Source: Planctomycetota bacterium
GTDB taxonomy: Bacteria > Planctomycetota > PLA2 > JAEUHO01
Reading direction: 5' to 3'
DNA: 64,000 bases
Assembly: GCA_965223505.1 (NCBI GenBank)
Contig: CBDCWP010000044.1
Coordinates: 64,001 to 128,000 of the forward strand
Shown: piece by piece, positions 10,760 to 18,213 of the stretch
How positions within the stretch are numbered: the stretch's first letter is position 1
Layout of the letters: the number at the start of each line of letters is the position of its first letter
Notes under the pieces: model-generated
Seen by the model: only the letters and a program-made list of their open reading frames with translations
What the model was told of the DNA's origin: nothing
Databases searched by the model: none
Made by a program: the position numbers and the translations under genes

Positions 10760-10981
10760 TCGGACCCGGAACGTTCGTTCCCGGGTTGCCGAAGACCGCG
10801 TGAGGTCGCGCAGTCCGCGCATGGTGAATCGATGGACGGTTGCCCGGTACCAGAAGGGCGAGAGAAGCCGGCGGGAGCGGGTCGGCGCGGCAAGAGCCAC
10901 CATAGCGCAATCGGAAGGCGGTGCAACGGACAAAAGTCGCGCGCTGAGGGGGGCGCCCGATCGAATCGGGATGGGGACGTT

Positions 10982-11048
10982 GTAGCGACCCTCGTGGTCG
11001 CCCAATCCGTCGCCTGCCCCGCTGGGCAGCCACGAGGGCTGCCCCGAC
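10982..11048. repeat. GTAG-family REP doublet (REPIN-like inverted pair)
   Basis: GTAGCGACCCTCGTGGTCGCCC ... GGGCAGCCACGAGGGCTGCCCCGAC; same family as 14867 and 16959. Confidence 0.8.
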
Positions 11049-11074
11049 GCCGACGCATCTTCGGCAACGAATGG

Positions 11075-11134: not shown

Positions 11135-13900
11135 CTAGCGGCGGAACCAGCGGCGCGGGTTGCCGACGCCCGGAAGGCCCTTGTCCTCGGGGCCCGTGCT
11201 GTCCGGACAGCCGCACGAGGGCGGAGCCTCGTCGGCCGGCCGCACCGGCGTCCAGCGGTTGGACGGGATCTCCGGCACGTTCAGGTTGTCCTTCGGCTCC
11301 AGCTCCTCCAGGTTCACGATCTCGGCCGTGATGAGGACGAGCAGGTTGCGGCGGTTCACGTAGTTGCCCTTGCGGGACAGCAGGAACGAGAGCACCGGCA
11401 GCTTCGAAAGGAAGGGCGTGCCGCTCTCGAGCGTCTCCTGCTCGTAGAACTTGAGACCGCCGAGCAGCAGCGTGCCGCCGTCGGGCATGTTGACCGTCGT
11501 GCGGACGCGGCTGACGCGCAACTCCGGAATCTGGATGACGACCGGGGCCGACGCCGTGACCGGACCCGAGGCGAGCGACGTGCTGAACGTCGCGATCGGG
11601 CGGGTCAGGACGGCCACCGTCGGGCGCAGCTCCAGGTTCACGAAGCGGCGGTCCGCGGAGACCACCGGGCGGACGTCGAGGACGATGCCGTCGAGGATCG
11701 TCTGGACGACCGGGTTCGCGATGTTGGACGCCTGCGCGATCTCGACCTCGTAGTCAGCCACGTAGGCGACCTGGTTGAGCACCTGCACGTTCGCGCGCTG
11801 CGTGTTGTAGACCGTGACGCGCGGGGCGGTGATCTGCTGGATGCGCTCGCTCTTCTCGACCGCGCGCAGGATCACCTCGATCTGGGTGTCGTCCAGGAAG
11901 GTGTGCTGGAAGGAAAGGCCGCCGGAGCCCGTGAGGACCTCGGGGTTGCCGAGCAGCACGTCGAACAGGTTCTCGACGCGAGCCGAGTAGGCGCCGTCTT
12001 GACCGTCGTTGTAGAAGATACCGGCGTCGTTGGCCGTACCGACCGAGGACGGCTCCGGGTTCACGCCGAACGGCACGCCGAACGGGTTGCCGGGCGACCC
12101 GAAGAAGACGTCGTCCTGGACGACCGCCGTACCGAGACCCGGCACGCCGATGCCCTGCGAGTTGTCGCCCAAGCCGCGCACGTCGACACCGACGTCGCGC
12201 AGGAAGTTGTCCTCGGCCGTCAGGAAGCGGACTTCCAGGTTCACCAGGATGCCCGTGTTCGCGCGGAGCTCCTCGAGAAGGTTGCCGATCTGGTTCAGGA
12301 TCGGCTTCGTGTTGCGCACGATCAGGATGCCGTTGCGCGCCTCGATGTTCGCCGGGTCGTCCCAGGCGCCTTCACCACCGATGGTCTCGCGGATCAGGTC
12401 CGGGAGGTTCTCGGCCGGGAAGATCGGAAGCGGATCCGGGAGCTCCGGCGGCTCCGGCGGCGTGAAGTTCGAGGGCGTCAGGTTGATCTCCTGGCCGACG
12501 AAGTTCTGAATCGCGACGTTGAGATCCTTCACGTCGAAGTAGCGCAGCTTCATGGTGCCGCTGATCTCGTCCTTGGTGGCGATCTTGATGACGCCGCCCT
12601 CGGCGATCCACTTGAGCTCGTAGTCCTCGGTGATGAGGTCCAGCACCGTGGAGACGCTGACGTCGTCGAGCTTGAGCGTGATCTGGACGTCCTCGCCCTT
12701 CTCCTCACGCGCCTTGGCGGTGATGAAGAAGTTGAGGCCGGTCAGGGTGCGCAGCAGGGCGACGGCGTCGTCCAGCGACGCGTCTTCCCAGTTCAGGCCC
12801 TGAATGCGCTGGTTCTCGATGACCGAGAGGATGCCGCCGAGCGACGCGTCCTCTGCCGCGTCGTCCGCGTCGCCGACCGCGCGGGGCTGGCGATGGGCGA
12901 TCTCCTCGAGCCAATCCTCGGGGAACTCGACCGTGCGGACCTGCGGCAGCGCGTCGTTCTCGACCTGCTGCATGATGCGCTTCCACTGGTCGTCGAAGCG
13001 ACGGCGCGCACTGATGTCCTCTTGCATGTGCTGCGCGTCGTAGCTGATCGTCATCAGACGCTCGGCATCGTCGTTCGTCGGGTCTTCGCGCAGGATCTGC
13101 CTCGCGTACTCGCGGGCCAGCTCGTAGTTGCCCTGGCGGAACGCCACGTTGGCTTCCTGGAAGTACGCGTGCATGCGGCCGAGACGACGCTCGCGCTCTG
13201 CGTTCAGCGCGTTCTCCTGCTCGATCTGCGCCTCGCGGATCTGCTCTTCGTGCGCGCTCCGCTCGGCGAGCTCCGACTTGTAGTTCGTGCGGTCGATGAG
13301 ATCGCGAATGCGCTCCGCGCTCATGCCGAAGTCCGCCGTCTCGTCGTACCAGGAGATGATGGCCAACGCCTTGCGGTACTCCTTGACCGCGCCGGCGTAG
13401 TTCTCCTGGCCTTCGAGCGTGCGACCGCGGTCGAGGTAGTTGCGAACCTCGGCGGCCGCCTGCTGGCGACGGACGTCTTCGACGCTCTTGCGCTCGCTCA
13501 TGTACGCGGCCGTCGTGCTGGGACGGTCGGACATGAGGTTCTCGAGCCCGTCGCGCGCTTCGATGTTGCTCGCGTCGAGGTCGAGTGCCTTCGCGAAGAG
13601 ATCCTTCGCCGTGTCGTAGTCGCCCTTGCTGACCGCGTCGTTGGCGCGATCGATGAAGTTCTTGATCAGGAACTTCTGACGGTCGGCTTCGACGGCGGCG
13701 GCGGCGGACTTCTCGTCGAGGTACTCGACGGCTTCCGGTGTCGCGGAGACGTCTCCGCCTTCGCCTTCCGCTTCCGCGACCACGACCGCGGTGTCGTCCG
13801 GCGAGCCGTCGCTCTTGGCGACGATGCGACGACGGCCTTGGCAGGCAGTCAGAGCGACGATCAAGACAGCTACAAAAAGGACGTGAACGGTGCGCTGCAT
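11135..13900 (-). CDS. Secretin-family (GspD/PilQ-like) outer membrane lipoprotein with N-terminal TPRs
   Basis: Lipobox LTA/C; TPR-like repeats; C-terminal secretin motifs VNLEVRFL, APRVTVYNTQRA, GIVLDVRPVVSADRRFV, TTVNMPDGGTLLLGGL, PFLSKLPVLSFL and LLVLITAEIV. Confidence 0.9.
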   Translation of the reverse strand: MQRTVHVLFVAVLIVALTACQGRRRIVAKSDGSPDDTAVVVAEAEGEGGDVSATPEAVEYLDEKSAAAAVEADRQKFLIKNFIDRANDAVSKGDYDTAKDLFAKALDLDASNIEARDGLENLMSDRPSTTAAYMSERKSVEDVRRQQAAAEVRNYLDRGRTLEGQENYAGAVKEYRKALAIISWYDETADFGMSAERIRDLIDRTNYKSELAERSAHEEQIREAQIEQENALNAERERRLGRMHAYFQEANVAFRQGNYELAREYARQILREDPTNDDAERLMTISYDAQHMQEDISARRRFDDQWKRIMQQVENDALPQVRTVEFPEDWLEEIAHRQPRAVGDADDAAEDASLGGILSVIENQRIQGLNWEDASLDDAVALLRTLTGLNFFITAKAREEKGEDVQITLKLDDVSVSTVLDLITEDYELKWIAEGGVIKIATKDEISGTMKLRYFDVKDLNVAIQNFVGQEINLTPSNFTPPEPPELPDPLPIFPAENLPDLIRETIGGEGAWDDPANIEARNGILIVRNTKPILNQIGNLLEELRANTGILVNLEVRFLTAEDNFLRDVGVDVRGLGDNSQGIGVPGLGTAVVQDDVFFGSPGNPFGVPFGVNPEPSSVGTANDAGIFYNDGQDGAYSARVENLFDVLLGNPEVLTGSGGLSFQHTFLDDTQIEVILRAVEKSERIQQITAPRVTVYNTQRANVQVLNQVAYVADYEVEIAQASNIANPVVQTILDGIVLDVRPVVSADRRFVNLELRPTVAVLTRPIATFSTSLASGPVTASAPVVIQIPELRVSRVRTTVNMPDGGTLLLGGLKFYEQETLESGTPFLSKLPVLSFLLSRKGNYVNRRNLLVLITAEIVNLEELEPKDNLNVPEIPSNRWTPVRPADEAPPSCGCPDSTGPEDKGLPGVGNPRRWFRR

Positions 13901-14110: not shown

Positions 14111-14866
14111 GTGACCCCCGAAAACGACCCCCGCCCGCCCTCGCTGCACGCCGAGGCCCGGCTGTATCTCGAGTGGATGCGCGGCGCCGGGGGACGGTGG
14201 CTTCCGGCGGACGGACCGCCGCCGGCGCTCGAGACCCCGAAGCCGGTCGCGTCCGGCGCTCGCGGTGACGCGTCGCCGAAGCTCACACGGCCCGAGCGGG
14301 CCGCGTATCTGGCTGCGATGGCGGACGACGTGAAGCGCTGCACGCGCTGCCGCCTCTGCGAGACGCGCAACGAGACGGTGTTCGGCGAGGGCAGCCAGGC
14401 GCCCAAGCTCGTGGTCGTGGGGGAGGCGCCCGGCGCGGACGAGGACCGCACGGGCCGGCCGTTCGTGGGGCGCGCGGGGCAGCTGCTGACGAAGATGCTC
14501 GCCGCCATCGGGCTCGCGCGTGAGGACGTGTACATCTGCAACGTGCTGAAGTGCCGCCCGCCGAACAACCGCAATCCGCGGCCCGACGAGGTCGGCTCCT
14601 GCCGGCCGTTCCTGCAGGAGCAGCTCACCCTGCTCGATCCGCCGCTGATCCTCGCGCTGGGCAGCCCTGCGTCCCGCGAGCTGCTCGGCACGGAGCGGGG
14701 GATCGGCAGCCTCCGGGGCCGATTCGCCCGCACCCGGGGCGGATTCCGCGTGATGCCGACCTATCACCCCGCGTACCTGCTGCGCAATCCGGCCGCGAAG
14801 CGCGACGTGTGGCATGACCTGAAGAAGGTTGCGGCCGACCTGGGGCTGGAGATCCCGGGGCGGTAG
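14111..14866 (+). CDS. udg: Uracil-DNA glycosylase family 4 (Fe-S)
   Basis: CTRCRLC, VGEAPGADED, GRPFVGRAGQLL, NVLKCRPPNNRNP and TYHPAYLLR. Confidence 0.95.
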   Translation: MTPENDPRPPSLHAEARLYLEWMRGAGGRWLPADGPPPALETPKPVASGARGDASPKLTRPERAAYLAAMADDVKRCTRCRLCETRNETVFGEGSQAPKLVVVGEAPGADEDRTGRPFVGRAGQLLTKMLAAIGLAREDVYICNVLKCRPPNNRNPRPDEVGSCRPFLQEQLTLLDPPLILALGSPASRELLGTERGIGSLRGRFARTRGGFRVMPTYHPAYLLRNPAAKRDVWHDLKKVAADLGLEIPGR

Positions 14867-14953
14867 GTAGGGGCAGCCCTTGTGGCTGCCCAACCGCACA
14901 TGCGTTGAGACCTGATCGACGAGCGCGTGGGCGACCACGAGGGTCGTCCCTAC
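14867..14953. repeat. GTAG-family REP doublet between convergent genes
   Basis: GTAGGGGCAGCCCTTGTGGCTGCCC ... GGGCGACCACGAGGGTCGTCCCTAC; the right GTAG contains the TAG stop of the methyltransferase. Confidence 0.85.
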
Positions 14954-15582
14954 TGCGGGCGCAGGACGGCGACCCACAGCTCGCGGCGGTACGCGGCAAG
15001 GCCGCGTGCGTCCACCATCCGCAGGCCCGCGGCCGCAGCCTCCTCACGTAACTCCTTTTTCGACAAGGTGTAACGGTCCCCGCGCCGCCTGGTGAACAGG
15101 CGCCGGATGCCCCGGCTCAGGTTGTGGAAGCTCACCGGGTGGTGGAAGGACAGCAGCAGCGTGCCCTGGGTCAGGGCCCGCAGGCCGCGAAGCACGCGCT
15201 CGCGGTGCGCCGCGTCCGGGAGGTGATGGAGGAACCGGAAGCAGACCACCAGGTCGGCGGGCGTGGCATCGGCGGGCACGGCTTCGAGGTCGATCGTCTC
15301 CAGCCCCAAAAAATGGGGCTTTCCGGACAGGCGGCGCTCGGCCTCGGCGCGCATCGCCGGCGACAGATCTGCGGCGCGGGTGGGAATCCCGCGTCCCATC
15401 AGCTGCTCCGCAATGCGTCCCGTGCCGCAGGGCACGTCCAGTGCGCTGCCGGGCGGCTGCGGCAGGTCGTCGAGCAGGCGGGAGAGCAGGGTCCATTCTT
15501 CGGCGTCGCGTTTGGCGCTGCGCGCGGCGTAAGCCCGGGCCTTGCCCGGTTCGTCGTACTTGGTGCGGCCGGCGTAGGACAT
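14950..15582 (-). CDS. Class I SAM-dependent methyltransferase
   Basis: ALDVPCGTGR, ADLSPAM and DLVVCFRFLHHL motifs. Confidence 0.88.
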   Translation of the reverse strand: MSYAGRTKYDEPGKARAYAARSAKRDAEEWTLLSRLLDDLPQPPGSALDVPCGTGRIAEQLMGRGIPTRAADLSPAMRAEAERRLSGKPHFLGLETIDLEAVPADATPADLVVCFRFLHHLPDAAHRERVLRGLRALTQGTLLLSFHHPVSFHNLSRGIRRLFTRRRGDRYTLSKKELREEAAAAGLRMVDARGLAAYRRELWVAVLRPQ

Positions 15583-15680
15583 CGGCCCGAATGTAGGGGA
15601 TGGGATAGGAGGTGGCAGCCCTGATCCTCGGTCGTGCCAAGTGTGTTTACGGCATCAGCCGAGGAAGGAACTGCCACCCC

Positions 15681-16727
15681 ATGACTGCGTACCACGTCGG
15701 AATCGACCTGCACAAGAGTGTCGCCCAAATCTGCGTCCGTGATGCGAAGGGCGAGATCGAAGAGGAGCGGCGGTGGCGCCTGCCGGATCGAAAGGCGGCC
15801 GCGGCGCTGGTTGCGTTTCTTGGCACCTACGGCGGCGGGCGCTTCGCGGTGGAAGCGTTGGGCTGCAACCGCTGGTTCGTGCTGGCCTGCCGCGAAGCGG
15901 GTTTGGAGATGCTTGTGGTGGACGCCACGAAGCTCGATCTGAAGAAGCAGGGCAAGAAGACGGATCGACGCGACGCCCAGGAGATCTCGCGCCGGCTGTA
16001 CCTTGGCGACCTGGACCGCTACGCACTGACCTACTTCGCCACCGAAGCCGAGTTCGGCCAGCGCAAGGTGTTGCGGGTTCGGCATCAGCTCGTTCAGCAT
16101 CGAACCAGCGTGCTGGCGCACATCCGCGGCATGCTCAACGCGTACCTGCTGCGAGCGCCGGTGACGCAGCTGTACACCAAGCGCGGGATCCAGTGGCTTC
16201 GCGAGCAGCGACTGGGTGATGAGAACCAGGATCTGGCGCTGCAGTCGCTGGTGGATGTCGTTGCGGCTCTGCAGGAGCGCATCGAGAAGCTCACCGCTCG
16301 AATCCGCGAGTTGGCCGAGCAGGACGAAGTCTCAGGCTGGATCGTTCGGAATCTGCCACAGGCGGGAGCCCAGACGGCTCTGACGCTTCAAGCTGAGTTG
16401 GGTGACGCAACCCGCTTCCGCGGTGCTCGACAGATCTCGAGCTATGGGGGTGTCGTTCCACGCGTTTCGGCCTCGGCGGATCGAGCGCACCACGGCCGCA
16501 TGACCAAACGCGGAAACGCCGAGTTGCGTTGGGTGCTGGGGCAATGGGCGGTTCGGTTGCTGGCCTTCGACCCAGAGGTGAAGGCGTGGGCACAGCCGAT
16601 GCTCAGGCGCATGCACCGCAACAAGGTTCGAATGGCGCTTGCACGCCGGCTACTGGTGGGCGTGTGGGTGATGTTCTCGCGTGGCGAGGTGTTCTCGCTG
16701 CGTCGGTGCCTAGGCCAGGCTGCCTGA
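15681..16727 (+). CDS. IS110 family transposase/recombinase (DEDD RuvC-like plus Tnp20 domain)
   Basis: VGIDLHK, AVEA and KKTDRRDAQ (DEDD); ELGDATRF, SYGGVVPRVSASA, KRGNAELRWVL and MALARRLL. ATG 15681 follows an AGGAAGG RBS. Confidence 0.95.
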   Translation: MTAYHVGIDLHKSVAQICVRDAKGEIEEERRWRLPDRKAAAALVAFLGTYGGGRFAVEALGCNRWFVLACREAGLEMLVVDATKLDLKKQGKKTDRRDAQEISRRLYLGDLDRYALTYFATEAEFGQRKVLRVRHQLVQHRTSVLAHIRGMLNAYLLRAPVTQLYTKRGIQWLREQRLGDENQDLALQSLVDVVAALQERIEKLTARIRELAEQDEVSGWIVRNLPQAGAQTALTLQAELGDATRFRGARQISSYGGVVPRVSASADRAHHGRMTKRGNAELRWVLGQWAVRLLAFDPEVKAWAQPMLRRMHRNKVRMALARRLLVGVWVMFSRGEVFSLRRCLGQAA

Positions 16728-16729
16728 GC

Positions 16730-16958
16730 GAACGCACTGAGAGAGAGGAAGCGAAACCAGGAATCGGACACCAACGGGCGCGTACTCCGGCGGGCCGCTG
16801 AGCGCATCAGCTCGTGTAGGCGATTGAGAGGCGCGTCCGACTCCCCCTCATGACGCCGCCCGAATAGGCGAGCTCGAAAACCCGAGTGGACGGATCCGAC
16901 CCTGGCGACGCGGAAAGGACGCACGGCCGACAGAAAAGGGCTTGCCATTCCCTAAACC
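16730..16958 (+). ncRNA. Candidate bridge/seek RNA region of the IS110 element
   Basis: About 230-nt 3' non-coding end. A stem AGCTCG(16809)/CGAGCT(16869) encloses TGTAGGCGAT (matching the reconstructed insertion site), an inner hairpin and CGCC. IS110 non-coding ends are known to encode such RNAs. Confidence 0.6.
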
Positions 16959-17051
16959 GGCGATCCTTGTGGTCGCCCAACTCGGCGTCTTGGGCAGCCA
17001 CAAGGGGCTGCCCCTACCTACGGCTTGGGCAGCCACAAGGGCTGCCCCTAC
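16959..17051. repeat. REP cluster (one IS-interrupted REP and two inverted copies)
   Basis: GGCGATCCTTGTGGTCGCCC; GGGCAGCCACAAGGGGCTGCCCCTAC (16992-17017); GGGCAGCCACAAGGGCTGCCCCTAC (17027-17051). Confidence 0.85.
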
Positions 17052-17055
17052 ACCG

Positions 17056-17353
17056 TCACGTGGACGTGGACGTGAACGTGAACCTGCACGACACCTGGAT
17101 CGCTCAGCGGTTCCACGCATACGACCCGTCCGCGCCGACCGCTGCGCCCACTGGCGTCCATGTCTGCGCGGGATCGCGATCGGGATCGGGATCGGGTGCG
17201 GGGGGGCCGCGCCGTGAAGGGTCCTCACGTGAACGTGGACGTGGACGTGAACCTGCACGACACCTGGATCGCTCAGCCGTTCCATGCACTCGGCCCGTCG
17301 GCGCCGACCGCGGTGCCCACTGGCGTCCCTGCGCGGGATCGGGATCGGGATCG
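17056..17353. repeat. Two direct repeats (period about 169 bp), each bounded by (GTGRAC)n and (GGGATC)n hexamer arrays
   Basis: Both copies (from 17056 and 17225) share GTGAACCTGCACGACACCTGGATCGCTCAGC...CCCACTGGCGTCC...CTGCGCGGGATC. Confidence 0.85.
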
Positions 17354-17361
17354 TGGGCTCC

Positions 17362-17385
17362 GTAGGGGCGGGGCGAGCCCCGCCC
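17362..17385. repeat. Second GTAG REP-like family (GTAGGGGCGGGGCGAGCCCCGCCC)
   Basis: GTAG plus palindrome; a near-identical copy lies at 43087-43112. Confidence 0.65.
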
Positions 17386-17448
17386 GTCGCGTGAACACCC
17401 CGGGGGGCAGACATTGCGACCCCTGCGCCCGCCGACCAACGCAAGACC

Positions 17449-18213
17449 ATGACCCAACCCGGGTTCCATGACGCGCCCGCAAGGACCTGGAGACCCGTCA
17501 TTCCCGTCAGCTTCGTCATCCCCTGCTACCAGGAAGAAGAGTCCCTGGCCGACTTCGCCGAACACCTCGCGCAAGTGCCCGGGGACGAGATCGTCTTCGT
17601 CGACGACGGGTCCCGCGACGGCACGGCGGCCGCGCTTGCCGAGCTGGCCTCGCGCGACGAGCGCGTGCGCATCGAGACCCACGAGCGCAATCGGGGCGTC
17701 GGCGCCGCCATGCGCACCGGCTTCGACGCGGCCCGGGGTGACATCGTGGTCGTCTACGACGTCGATCGAACGTACCCGCTCGACGATGCGCGGAAGCTGA
17801 TCGACGCGGTCGCGAACGGCGCGTGTGACGTCGCCTCGGCCACGCCCTTCGCGCACGGCGGCGGGCTCGAGCGCGTGCCCGTCTTCCGTCGTCTACTCTC
17901 GCGCGGTGCCGTCTGCGCCTATCGGGTCGTGCTGGCCGGCCGCACCCAGGGCATGACGACGTACACGTGCGCCTTTCGCGCCTACCGCGCCTCGCAGCTC
18001 GAGACCCTGCGGTTCGCGAGCGACGGGTTCCCGGCCGCTGCGGAGATCATCGGGCGCCTGCTGTTGCGCCGCGCGCGCGTGGTCGAGGTGCCGTCGACGC
18101 TGCGGGCCCGGACGGAGGGTTCCAGCAAGATGCGCGTCGGCCGAACGTTGCTCGGCCACCTCTGGAACTGCGCGCGTCTTCTCTGGATTCGTGTGACGCC
18201 TTCGCGGGCCTGA
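17449..18213 (+). CDS. GT2 glycosyltransferase, polyprenol-phosphate sugar synthase (DPM1/Ppm1-like)
   Basis: VIPCYQEEES, VFVDDGSRDGT, HERNRGVGAA, YDVD and EGSSKM. Confidence 0.88.
   Translation: MTQPGFHDAPARTWRPVIPVSFVIPCYQEEESLADFAEHLAQVPGDEIVFVDDGSRDGTAAALAELASRDERVRIETHERNRGVGAAMRTGFDAARGDIVVVYDVDRTYPLDDARKLIDAVANGACDVASATPFAHGGGLERVPVFRRLLSRGAVCAYRVVLAGRTQGMTTYTCAFRAYRASQLETLRFASDGFPAAAEIIGRLLLRRARVVEVPSTLRARTEGSSKMRVGRTLLGHLWNCARLLWIRVTPSRA

Follow-up and report, generated by a model that had tools for sequence, protein, structure and literature searches.

Insertion sequences of the IS1111 group are described as carrying subterminal inverted repeats of 7-17 bp, a transposase of 330-350 amino acids and a longer non-coding region downstream of the transposase gene (PMC11187229; PMC11208160). 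IS110-family members specific for repetitive extragenic palindromes (REPs) have been known since 2006 (PMC1525189), and experimental demonstrations of RNA guidance are reported for relatives in both subgroups of the IS110 family, i.e. IS110 and IS1111 (PMC11187229; PMC11208160). Of the REP-specific Pseudomonas elements, ISPa11, ISPpu9 and ISPpu10 are described as often lying in clusters of oppositely oriented REPs and as forming circular intermediates (PMC1525189, PMC12288879, PMC11187229), and hybrid promoters at the circle junction are reported for IS621, ISEc11, ISEc21 and ISPpu10, not for ISPpu9 (PMC12288879; PMC11187229). On the target side, the GTAG-tagged REP superfamily with its 24 families is reported to occur in the Planctomycetes-Verrucomicrobia-Chlamydiae (PVC) superphylum, including the Planctomycetes (Di Nocera et al. 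2013, PMC3733652). Here, we describe an intact, previously uncatalogued IS110-family insertion sequence at 15600-16958 of a 64,000-nt stretch of DNA from a high-GC, planctomycete-like genome (the window, to whose positions all coordinates refer). It is likely to be an IS1111-type element that is specific for GG within a GTAG-tagged REP and whose choice of target is guided by an RNA from its right non-coding region.

The insertion is site-specific: the element entered a GTAG-tagged REP hairpin at a GG on its 5′ side (Table 1). The left end of the element at 15600 opens with ATGGGATAGG, and the right end at 16958 closes with ...CCCTAAACC, followed by GG and then by CGATCC from 16961 onwards. To the left, positions 15593-15596 form the GTAG tag of the interrupted REP and 15597 is the adjoining G; the left target, i.e. 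the 6 nt left of the core, consists of 15592 together with 15593-15597. Excising the element with one GG restores a GTAG-tagged REP in register. Indeed, in a MAFFT alignment the flanks joined through exactly one GG run without gaps along the six intact REP copies of the window, and with zero or two GG at the joint the reconstructed REP becomes 2 nt too short or too long. Because of this gap-free alignment, the empty site with a GG core that a preceding sequence-only reading had reconstructed proves right, and so do the precise REP insertion and the GG at either junction (15598-99 and 16959-60) on which it had been built. We regard GG as the crossover core on three independent grounds, namely the REP register, a palindrome restored at the insertion site of a relative (L002, introduced below) and candidate RNA segments that end in core-matching bases. 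With a GC content of 64-65%, the element stands out from its flanks (70-74%). No damage is seen in its two ends, the two GG copies or the two REP halves, and a blastn search with the element against the 64-kb window returned itself as the sole match.

The target belongs to a repeat family with seven copies in the window, the interrupted one included, which a regular expression located in three intergenic clusters. All clusters lie within the first 17 kb and consist mostly of oppositely oriented pairs; none of the copies falls into the 17.1-64 kb part of the window. An nhmmer profile of the REP recovered exactly the same seven copies (E <= 7e-05; next match, E 0.12), among them the two that had been named at 10982 and 14867 beforehand. 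With a degenerate hairpin pattern, seven matches were obtained at four places, three of them on both strands, compared to 0.01 expected, and none of 100 shuffles reached this number; a second degenerate pattern, badly designed, gave two matches against 0.71 expected, which amounts to chance only. Six of the seven copies have an unpaired GTAG beside their 8-bp stem (the seventh has GTCG), and a GTAGGGGC head is common to three of the six intact ones. Given the unpaired GTAG next to the stem and the intergenic, paired copies, we place the repeat in the GTAG-tagged REP superfamily, whose members are likewise short extragenic stem-loops with an unpaired GTAG at one end and pairs in opposite orientation. 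As a separate observation, the stop codon of a uracil-DNA glycosylase gene, which ends at 14866, lies inside the doubled GGTAGGTAG head of the REP copy at 14862-14897; stop codons within REP heads are described as a general trait of GTAG REPs (PMC3733652).

A scan of genome contigs yielded 105 pattern matches, two of which encode relatives of the transposase (L001 and L002) and none of which stems from the window's own genome. L001 (55% amino-acid identity) fills nearly the whole of its 1,370-bp contig. This contig (1-1370) starts 4 nt before the left end of the element and stops exactly where the right end is predicted, the pattern to be expected from an assembly break at a repeated element. 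L002 (47% amino-acid identity; 1,530 bp) is flanked by 53 nt on the left and 6 nt on the right, GG excluded. It has GG at both junctions, and its flanks joined via one GG form a perfect 14-bp palindrome, which lends independent support to the end positions and to the GG core. Like the window element, L001 and L002 both begin with A-Y-GG-K-ATAG and have more non-coding sequence after the transposase gene than before it, along with subterminal repeats and, within the right region, a conserved block common to all three elements.

The transposase gene is the sole long reading frame inside the element, and its ATG at 15681 is fixed by the N-termini of the two relatives. The protein matches PF01548 (DEDD_Tnp_IS110; E 5e-11) and PF02371 (Transposase_20; E 2.8e-19) as well as the NCBIfam model NF033542 'IS110 family RNA-guided transposase' (181.5 bits, with a cut-off of 140; profile positions 2-342 of 343), confirming the family assignment made from the letters. 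In an alignment of 36 sequences, composed of the window protein, L001, L002 and 33 proteins picked across 120 listed relatives, D9, E58, D95, D98, G257, P260 and S265 are invariant (36/36). IS621 (8wt6) aligns on the C-terminal domain only (residues 195-318 of the window protein, E 2.3e-05), with its SG serine in the same column as the catalytic serine. Among 8000 candidates scored from a collection of 5.8 billion protein clusters, 600 reached E <= 0.001, nearly all of them on contigs of 1.2-2.5 kb, and the closest was 79% identical. The best annotated relatives were ISHvo10 (33%) and ISPa25 (29%), found among at least 5000 plasmid-collection records, all below 60% identity; at the DNA level, the element had no match in this plasmid collection, a comparison that did not include the Pseudomonas IS1111 elements themselves. 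Separately, we observed that the window transposase has no entry of its own in the protein collection, in which the secretin of the window is present (100%, on a 313-kb contig). The best named relatives of the secretin (gene at 11138-13900) are at most 73% identical and reside in planctomycete metagenome bins.

The non-coding ends of the element measure 81 nt on the left and 231 nt on the right. There are no inverted repeats at the very termini; instead, subterminal repeats begin 6 and 4 nt inward, and their local-alignment score was reached in 11/1000 shuffles for the window element, 2/1000 for L002 and 0/1000 for L001. Independently of this pairing, the left subterminal repeat resembles an REP arm, its 16 nt being 81% complementary to 17005-17020 of a neighbouring REP. 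The right repeat contains the outward-facing, −35-like TTGCCA on the + strand that had already been pointed out in the sequence-only reading. A −35-like hexamer sits 11 nt from the right end in all three elements (TTGCCA in the window, TTGACA in L001, TTGACT in L002) and, with the ends joined via one GG, a −10-like hexamer (GATAGG, TATAGG and TATAGA, respectively) follows at a spacing of 17 nt in each of them. In addition, a strong hairpin extends from the left end to the start codon (minimum free energy −42.8 kcal/mol, z −4.2; 0/200 shuffles as good). L001 (z −3.95) and L002 (z −2.9) have left-end hairpins with different stem sequences, whose 3′ arms cover a good Shine-Dalgarno sequence. Transcripts entering from outside would fold at this hairpin and stay untranslated; a transcript from the putative junction promoter would begin within the 5′ arm.

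The right non-coding region holds a candidate bridge/seek RNA, whose putative guides change with each element's target and right end. Its predicted target-binding module consists of an outer stem, a 5′ loop segment, a 4-bp hairpin and a 3′ loop segment, in this order. The 5′ loop segment provides the candidate right-target guide, and its counterpart in L002 (1265-1272) can pair at 8/8 positions, including one G-U. The candidate left-target guide in the 3′ loop segment (window 16814-16822, L002 1289-1297) matches the element's own flank at 6/6 positions in either case, compared to 2/6 crosswise. In L001, the corresponding 9-mer (1203-1211) ends with CT before CG, CT being the only two flank bases known for this element. 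A candidate donor hexamer directly follows GAGCTCG and precedes CG in all three elements (L002 1347-1354, L001 1259-1266); it agrees with the last 6 nt of its own element at 5, 5 and 4 of 6 positions and with the ends of the others at 2-4 of 6. The candidate donor guide extends past the right end, where it matches the second G in 3/3 elements. We defined the target-guide arrangement as an 8-nt top-strand pairing with at most one mismatch, 8-30 nt and an exact match to the 6-mer that adjoins the core on its left. One instance each is present in the right regions of the window element and L002, at homologous positions that precede the conserved GAGCTCGA by 48 and 43 nt, and the arrangement was found in 22/20000 (window) and 56/20000 (L002) shuffles; cross-tests against the other element's target gave 0. 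Scored on the seven REP copies, the window guides chose the GG register in five. The best guide fit was obtained for the unoccupied REP at 17021-17056 (7/7 and 7/8, with 6/7 and 7/8 for the occupied site), and since it is this unoccupied neighbour that fits best, the guides seem tuned to the REP family rather than to the occupied site.

Several further matches were set aside. An 8-mer common to 16858-16865 and the unique left flank at 15585-15592, outside the REP, is compatible with chance (146/2000 shuffles). The CG after the left guides could be read as skipping the core, which fits the target, not the donor. Two Rfam matches, a microRNA model covering the REP pair and a model of an archaeal small RNA, are meaningless. 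As for the core itself, we observed that the first G is faced by C in 6/6 bottom-strand guides of the three elements and by U in 2/2 top-strand guides, and that the second G is matched in every candidate guide.

By analogy with the described systems, we infer circle formation, activity of the junction promoter, existence and processing of the RNA, and pairing of its guides. The DEDD/serine recombinase would cut out a circular form of the element, its right end linked to its left end by one GG, and the resulting junction would bring the right-end −35-like hexamer to within 17 nt of the left-end −10-like hexamer. The recombinase would be bound by an RNA that originates from the 231 nt following the transposase gene, and a third segment of this RNA would pair with the element's own right end. 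Circle and REP would thus be aligned for strand exchange at GG.

How does this locus compare to described elements? Judged by its sequence, it is of IS1111-type and not of IS621-type architecture. Its non-coding regions (231 vs 81 nt), its subterminal repeats, its transposase length of 348 amino acids and its guide order all agree with the former: the candidate top-strand guide (16792-16799) lies 5′ of the candidate bottom-strand guide (16814-16822), in L002 as well, which is the order described for IS1111-family seekRNAs and the reverse of that in IS621 and ISEc21 (PMC11187229; PMC11208160). At odds with the latter, the left end of 81 nt corresponds to one hairpin, and the core is GG, not CT. 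The sequence-only reading, which named IS621 and some IS1111-group elements as known REP-targeting systems, had proposed a new RNA-guided recombinase that targets REPs and has a GG core. The REP insertion and the GG stand, with the correction that the element, by its long right end, subterminal repeats and predicted guide order, is built like the IS1111 group and not like IS621. Nor is an IS1111-like REP element a new kind: REP-specific members date back to 2006 and the demonstration of RNA guidance to 2024, and the element is a further example of a well-described kind.

With ISPa11, ISPpu9 and ISPpu10, the window element shares REP targets, a fixed dinucleotide and a downstream RNA region, and its left subterminal repeat recalls the REP-like inverted repeat described in the left end of ISPpu9 (PMC12288879). 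The circular intermediates of these elements and the hybrid junction promoter of ISPpu10 would have counterparts in the putative circle and junction promoter of the window element. It is set apart from these Pseudomonas elements by another REP family, another host phylum and the S-A after its serine, and its GG core differs from the AG of ISPpu9. IS621, an IS110-group element of Escherichia coli, is alike in combining DEDD and serine recombinase parts, in its REP targets and, as far as can be deduced for the window element, in a 2-nt core within the guides, in one guide per strand on either side of the core and in a circle-junction promoter. It differs in that its bridge RNA lies in the left end, the guide order is reversed, the core is CT and long subterminal repeats are lacking. 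The best annotated match, ISHvo10 from a Haloferax volcanii plasmid (33% identity over 97% of the protein), is described as a diverged, archaeal member beside the IS1111 cluster with long non-coding regions on both sides (PMC11187229). A literature search for a bridge RNA with a GG core found no paper, which says little, as published cores tend to appear in figures and tables.

A number of observations weigh against an IS1111-type, GG-specific and RNA-guided element. The catalytic serine is followed by alanine (G-V-V-P-x4-S-A, residues 257-266, window 16449-16478), a residue shared by 90% or more of the 36 sequences in the alignment, while the IS1111 motif GL-P----S(T)G as worded in PMC11187229 names SG, TG and occasionally TA, and SA is unnamed there. 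Among the three elements, it is the window element that has the weakest junction hexamers (TTGCCA and GATAGG). A left-end (right donor) guide was not found in the three elements, the candidates being complementarities of 4-7 nt, none of which lies at homologous positions in all three. Whole right regions fold no better than shuffles (z +0.88, −0.60 and −1.75), and neither do the target modules clearly (z −1.10, −2.05 and +0.30); three sequences provide no real covariation statistic, and no Rfam family matched at E up to 1 (best E 0.42). The arrangement of guides was defined post hoc and compared with mononucleotide shuffles, so its p-like numbers are optimistic. In L001, the top-strand guide is not fixed, the right flank being absent from the contig, and in none of the candidate guides does the first core G have a Watson-Crick match. 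Finally, with a single copy at a single insertion site, target specificity refers to one event plus one relative.

These points have to be set against what other explanations can account for. If the element were IS621-like, i.e. of the IS110 subgroup, with the bridge RNA locus preceding the transposase gene in the left end, its REP targeting and 2-nt core would fit, as both are IS621 properties too (PMC11208160), and so would the very stable structure present in that end. However, this end is only 81 nt long and almost wholly taken up by one hairpin over the ribosome-binding region, with a single 6-nt target match that does not touch the core, whereas the guide-like matches lie downstream of the gene, in the long non-coding region that also holds the conserved block. 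Together with subterminal inverted repeats of 16-17 nt and an alignment to IS621 that covers the C-terminal domain only, this makes an IS621-like element extremely improbable. Hardly more credible is a GG pair that arose as a 2-bp target-site duplication upon staggered cleavage instead of being a core shared by donor and target. One insertion cannot discriminate between the two, as GG would stand on each side either way; yet cores in this family are described as present in both partners and as exchanged, not duplicated (PMC11208160, PMC11208158), and the candidate donor guide reaches beyond the right end to match the second G in every element.

The guide-like matches, for their part, might be a degenerate REP-like fragment or the product of chance, with protein or DNA structure choosing the target. 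The arms of a REP are palindromic, and any REP-like sequence will match sense and antisense; 6-mers are expected by chance, an unrelated 8-mer of the flank recurred in the shuffles mentioned above, and the RNA folds are not significant. Against this, L002 has a different target and matches it at the homologous position, with cross-tests of 0 and 2/6, the donor hexamer follows three different right ends, and RNA guidance has been shown experimentally in relatives of both subgroups, as cited at the outset. We therefore regard target choice without a guide as improbable. An IS1111-type, RNA-guided element thus stays the preferred reading, and a further matter is whether this copy can still move. 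It could be stranded, i.e. structurally whole but inactive, given that it is alone in 64 kb, that no protein among the 8000 candidates scored exceeds 79% identity, that its junction hexamers are weaker than those of both relatives, that no good Shine-Dalgarno sequence lies 5-10 nt from its ATG and that a better-matching REP 60 bp away is unoccupied. But its reading frame is open, all five catalytic residues are intact, ends, GG copies and REP halves show no damage, and the copy count covers the 64-kb window alone. Loss of mobility is possible, if on balance rather unlikely.

Table 1 Features of the insertion sequence, its target repeats and the adjacent gene (window positions)
Feature	Position	Strand	Remarks
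Insertion sequence proper	15600-16958	+	1,359 bp; 1,361 bp counting one GG
GG core, left copy	15598-15599	+	Direct sequence; REP register; L002 has GG at the equivalent place
GG core, right copy	16959-16960	+	Direct sequence
Interrupted REP, left part	15593-15597	+	GTAG tag and adjoining G; in line with GTAG heads of other copies
Interrupted REP, right part (stem-loop)	16961-16984	+	nhmmer E 7e-05 on the right part alone
−10-like hexamer GATAGG of the putative circle-junction promoter	15604-15609	+	Weak match; 4 nt from left end
Left subterminal inverted repeat	15606-15621	+	Starts 6 nt inside left end; aligned to the reverse-complemented right end
Strong hairpin, left end to start codon	15608-15680	+	3′ arm covers ribosome-binding region
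Transposase gene	15681-16727	+	348 amino acids; DEDD/RuvC-like domain and Tnp domain with serine
Candidate target-binding module	16776-16838	+	Outer stem 16776-16782 pairs with 16832-16838 (fold); equal layout in L002 at 1249-1312, unrelated stem
Candidate right-target (top-strand) guide	16792-16799	+	7/8 pair, 2 G-U
Central 4-bp hairpin between target guides	16800-16813	+	L002 1273-1288: one compensatory change (A-U to U-A)
Candidate left-target (bottom-strand) guide	16814-16822	+	Positions 2-7 equal the 6 nt left of the core, then CG
Block kept in all three elements	16870-16899	+	Holds candidate left-donor guide 16877-16884
Right subterminal inverted repeat	16938-16954	+	Ends 4 nt inside right end; contains TTGCCA 16942-16947
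REP copy	10974-11009	+	
REP copy	11018-11053	−	
REP copy	14862-14897	+	
REP copy	14923-14958	−	
REP copies, intact	16986-17022 and 17021-17056	−	Same cluster as the interrupted copy; unoccupied potential targets
S-adenosylmethionine-dependent methyltransferase gene	14950-15582	−	Pfam Methyltransf_25/11/12/23; ATG 17 nt from left end of element

To the left, the element borders on a methyltransferase gene transcribed away from it. A −10-like TACATT on the minus strand (15595-15590) ends 7 nt before the ATG at 15582, a spacing that would suit a leaderless transcript, and the element starts 4 nt upstream of TACATT; the insertion was thus correctly placed just upstream of this −10 in the sequence-only reading. 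At a distance of 17 nt from TACATT, the left subterminal repeat supplies CTGCCA (4/6), where the uninterrupted REP would supply 3/6. The hybrid of CTGCCA, 17 nt and TACATT scores only 8/12, and a scan for consensus promoters over 15400-17500 found 0 sites, with 0.2 expected. The insertion may separate the methyltransferase gene from whatever lay upstream and may, as suggested in the sequence-only reading, change its expression. On the other side, the interval between the REP cluster and a glycosyltransferase gene (17056-17353) contains a tandem duplication. Its 107-nt units (17056-17162 and 17225-17331) share 90% identity at a distance of 169 nt; both open with runs of GTGGAC/GTGAAC hexamers, and short repeats of the GATCGG type follow each of them (17164-17200 and 17329-17353).

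Read jointly, the peculiarities of this locus could mean that the element and its ~600 metagenomic relatives form a separate Ser-Ala branch of bridge recombinases, whose RNA never pairs with the first core base in Watson-Crick fashion (3/3 elements) and whose subterminal repeat doubles as an outward −35 at both ends, a reading we hold to be improbable. If it were true, the unpaired first core base would imply an effective one-base core or a strand-exchange geometry unlike that of IS621, and the insertion 4 nt upstream of a −10 element would rebuild a promoter for the neighbouring gene. Aside from this, the locus adds an intact candidate bridge/seek-RNA recombinase whose core is GG and whose natural target is a GTAG REP; the planctomycete-like genome that carries it is poorly sampled. 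Its two distant relatives with other targets provide a small natural example of guide reprogramming, and such orthologues are of some use where recombinases that prefer other cores are being collected. Within the biology of its genome, the element is an ordinary insertion sequence.

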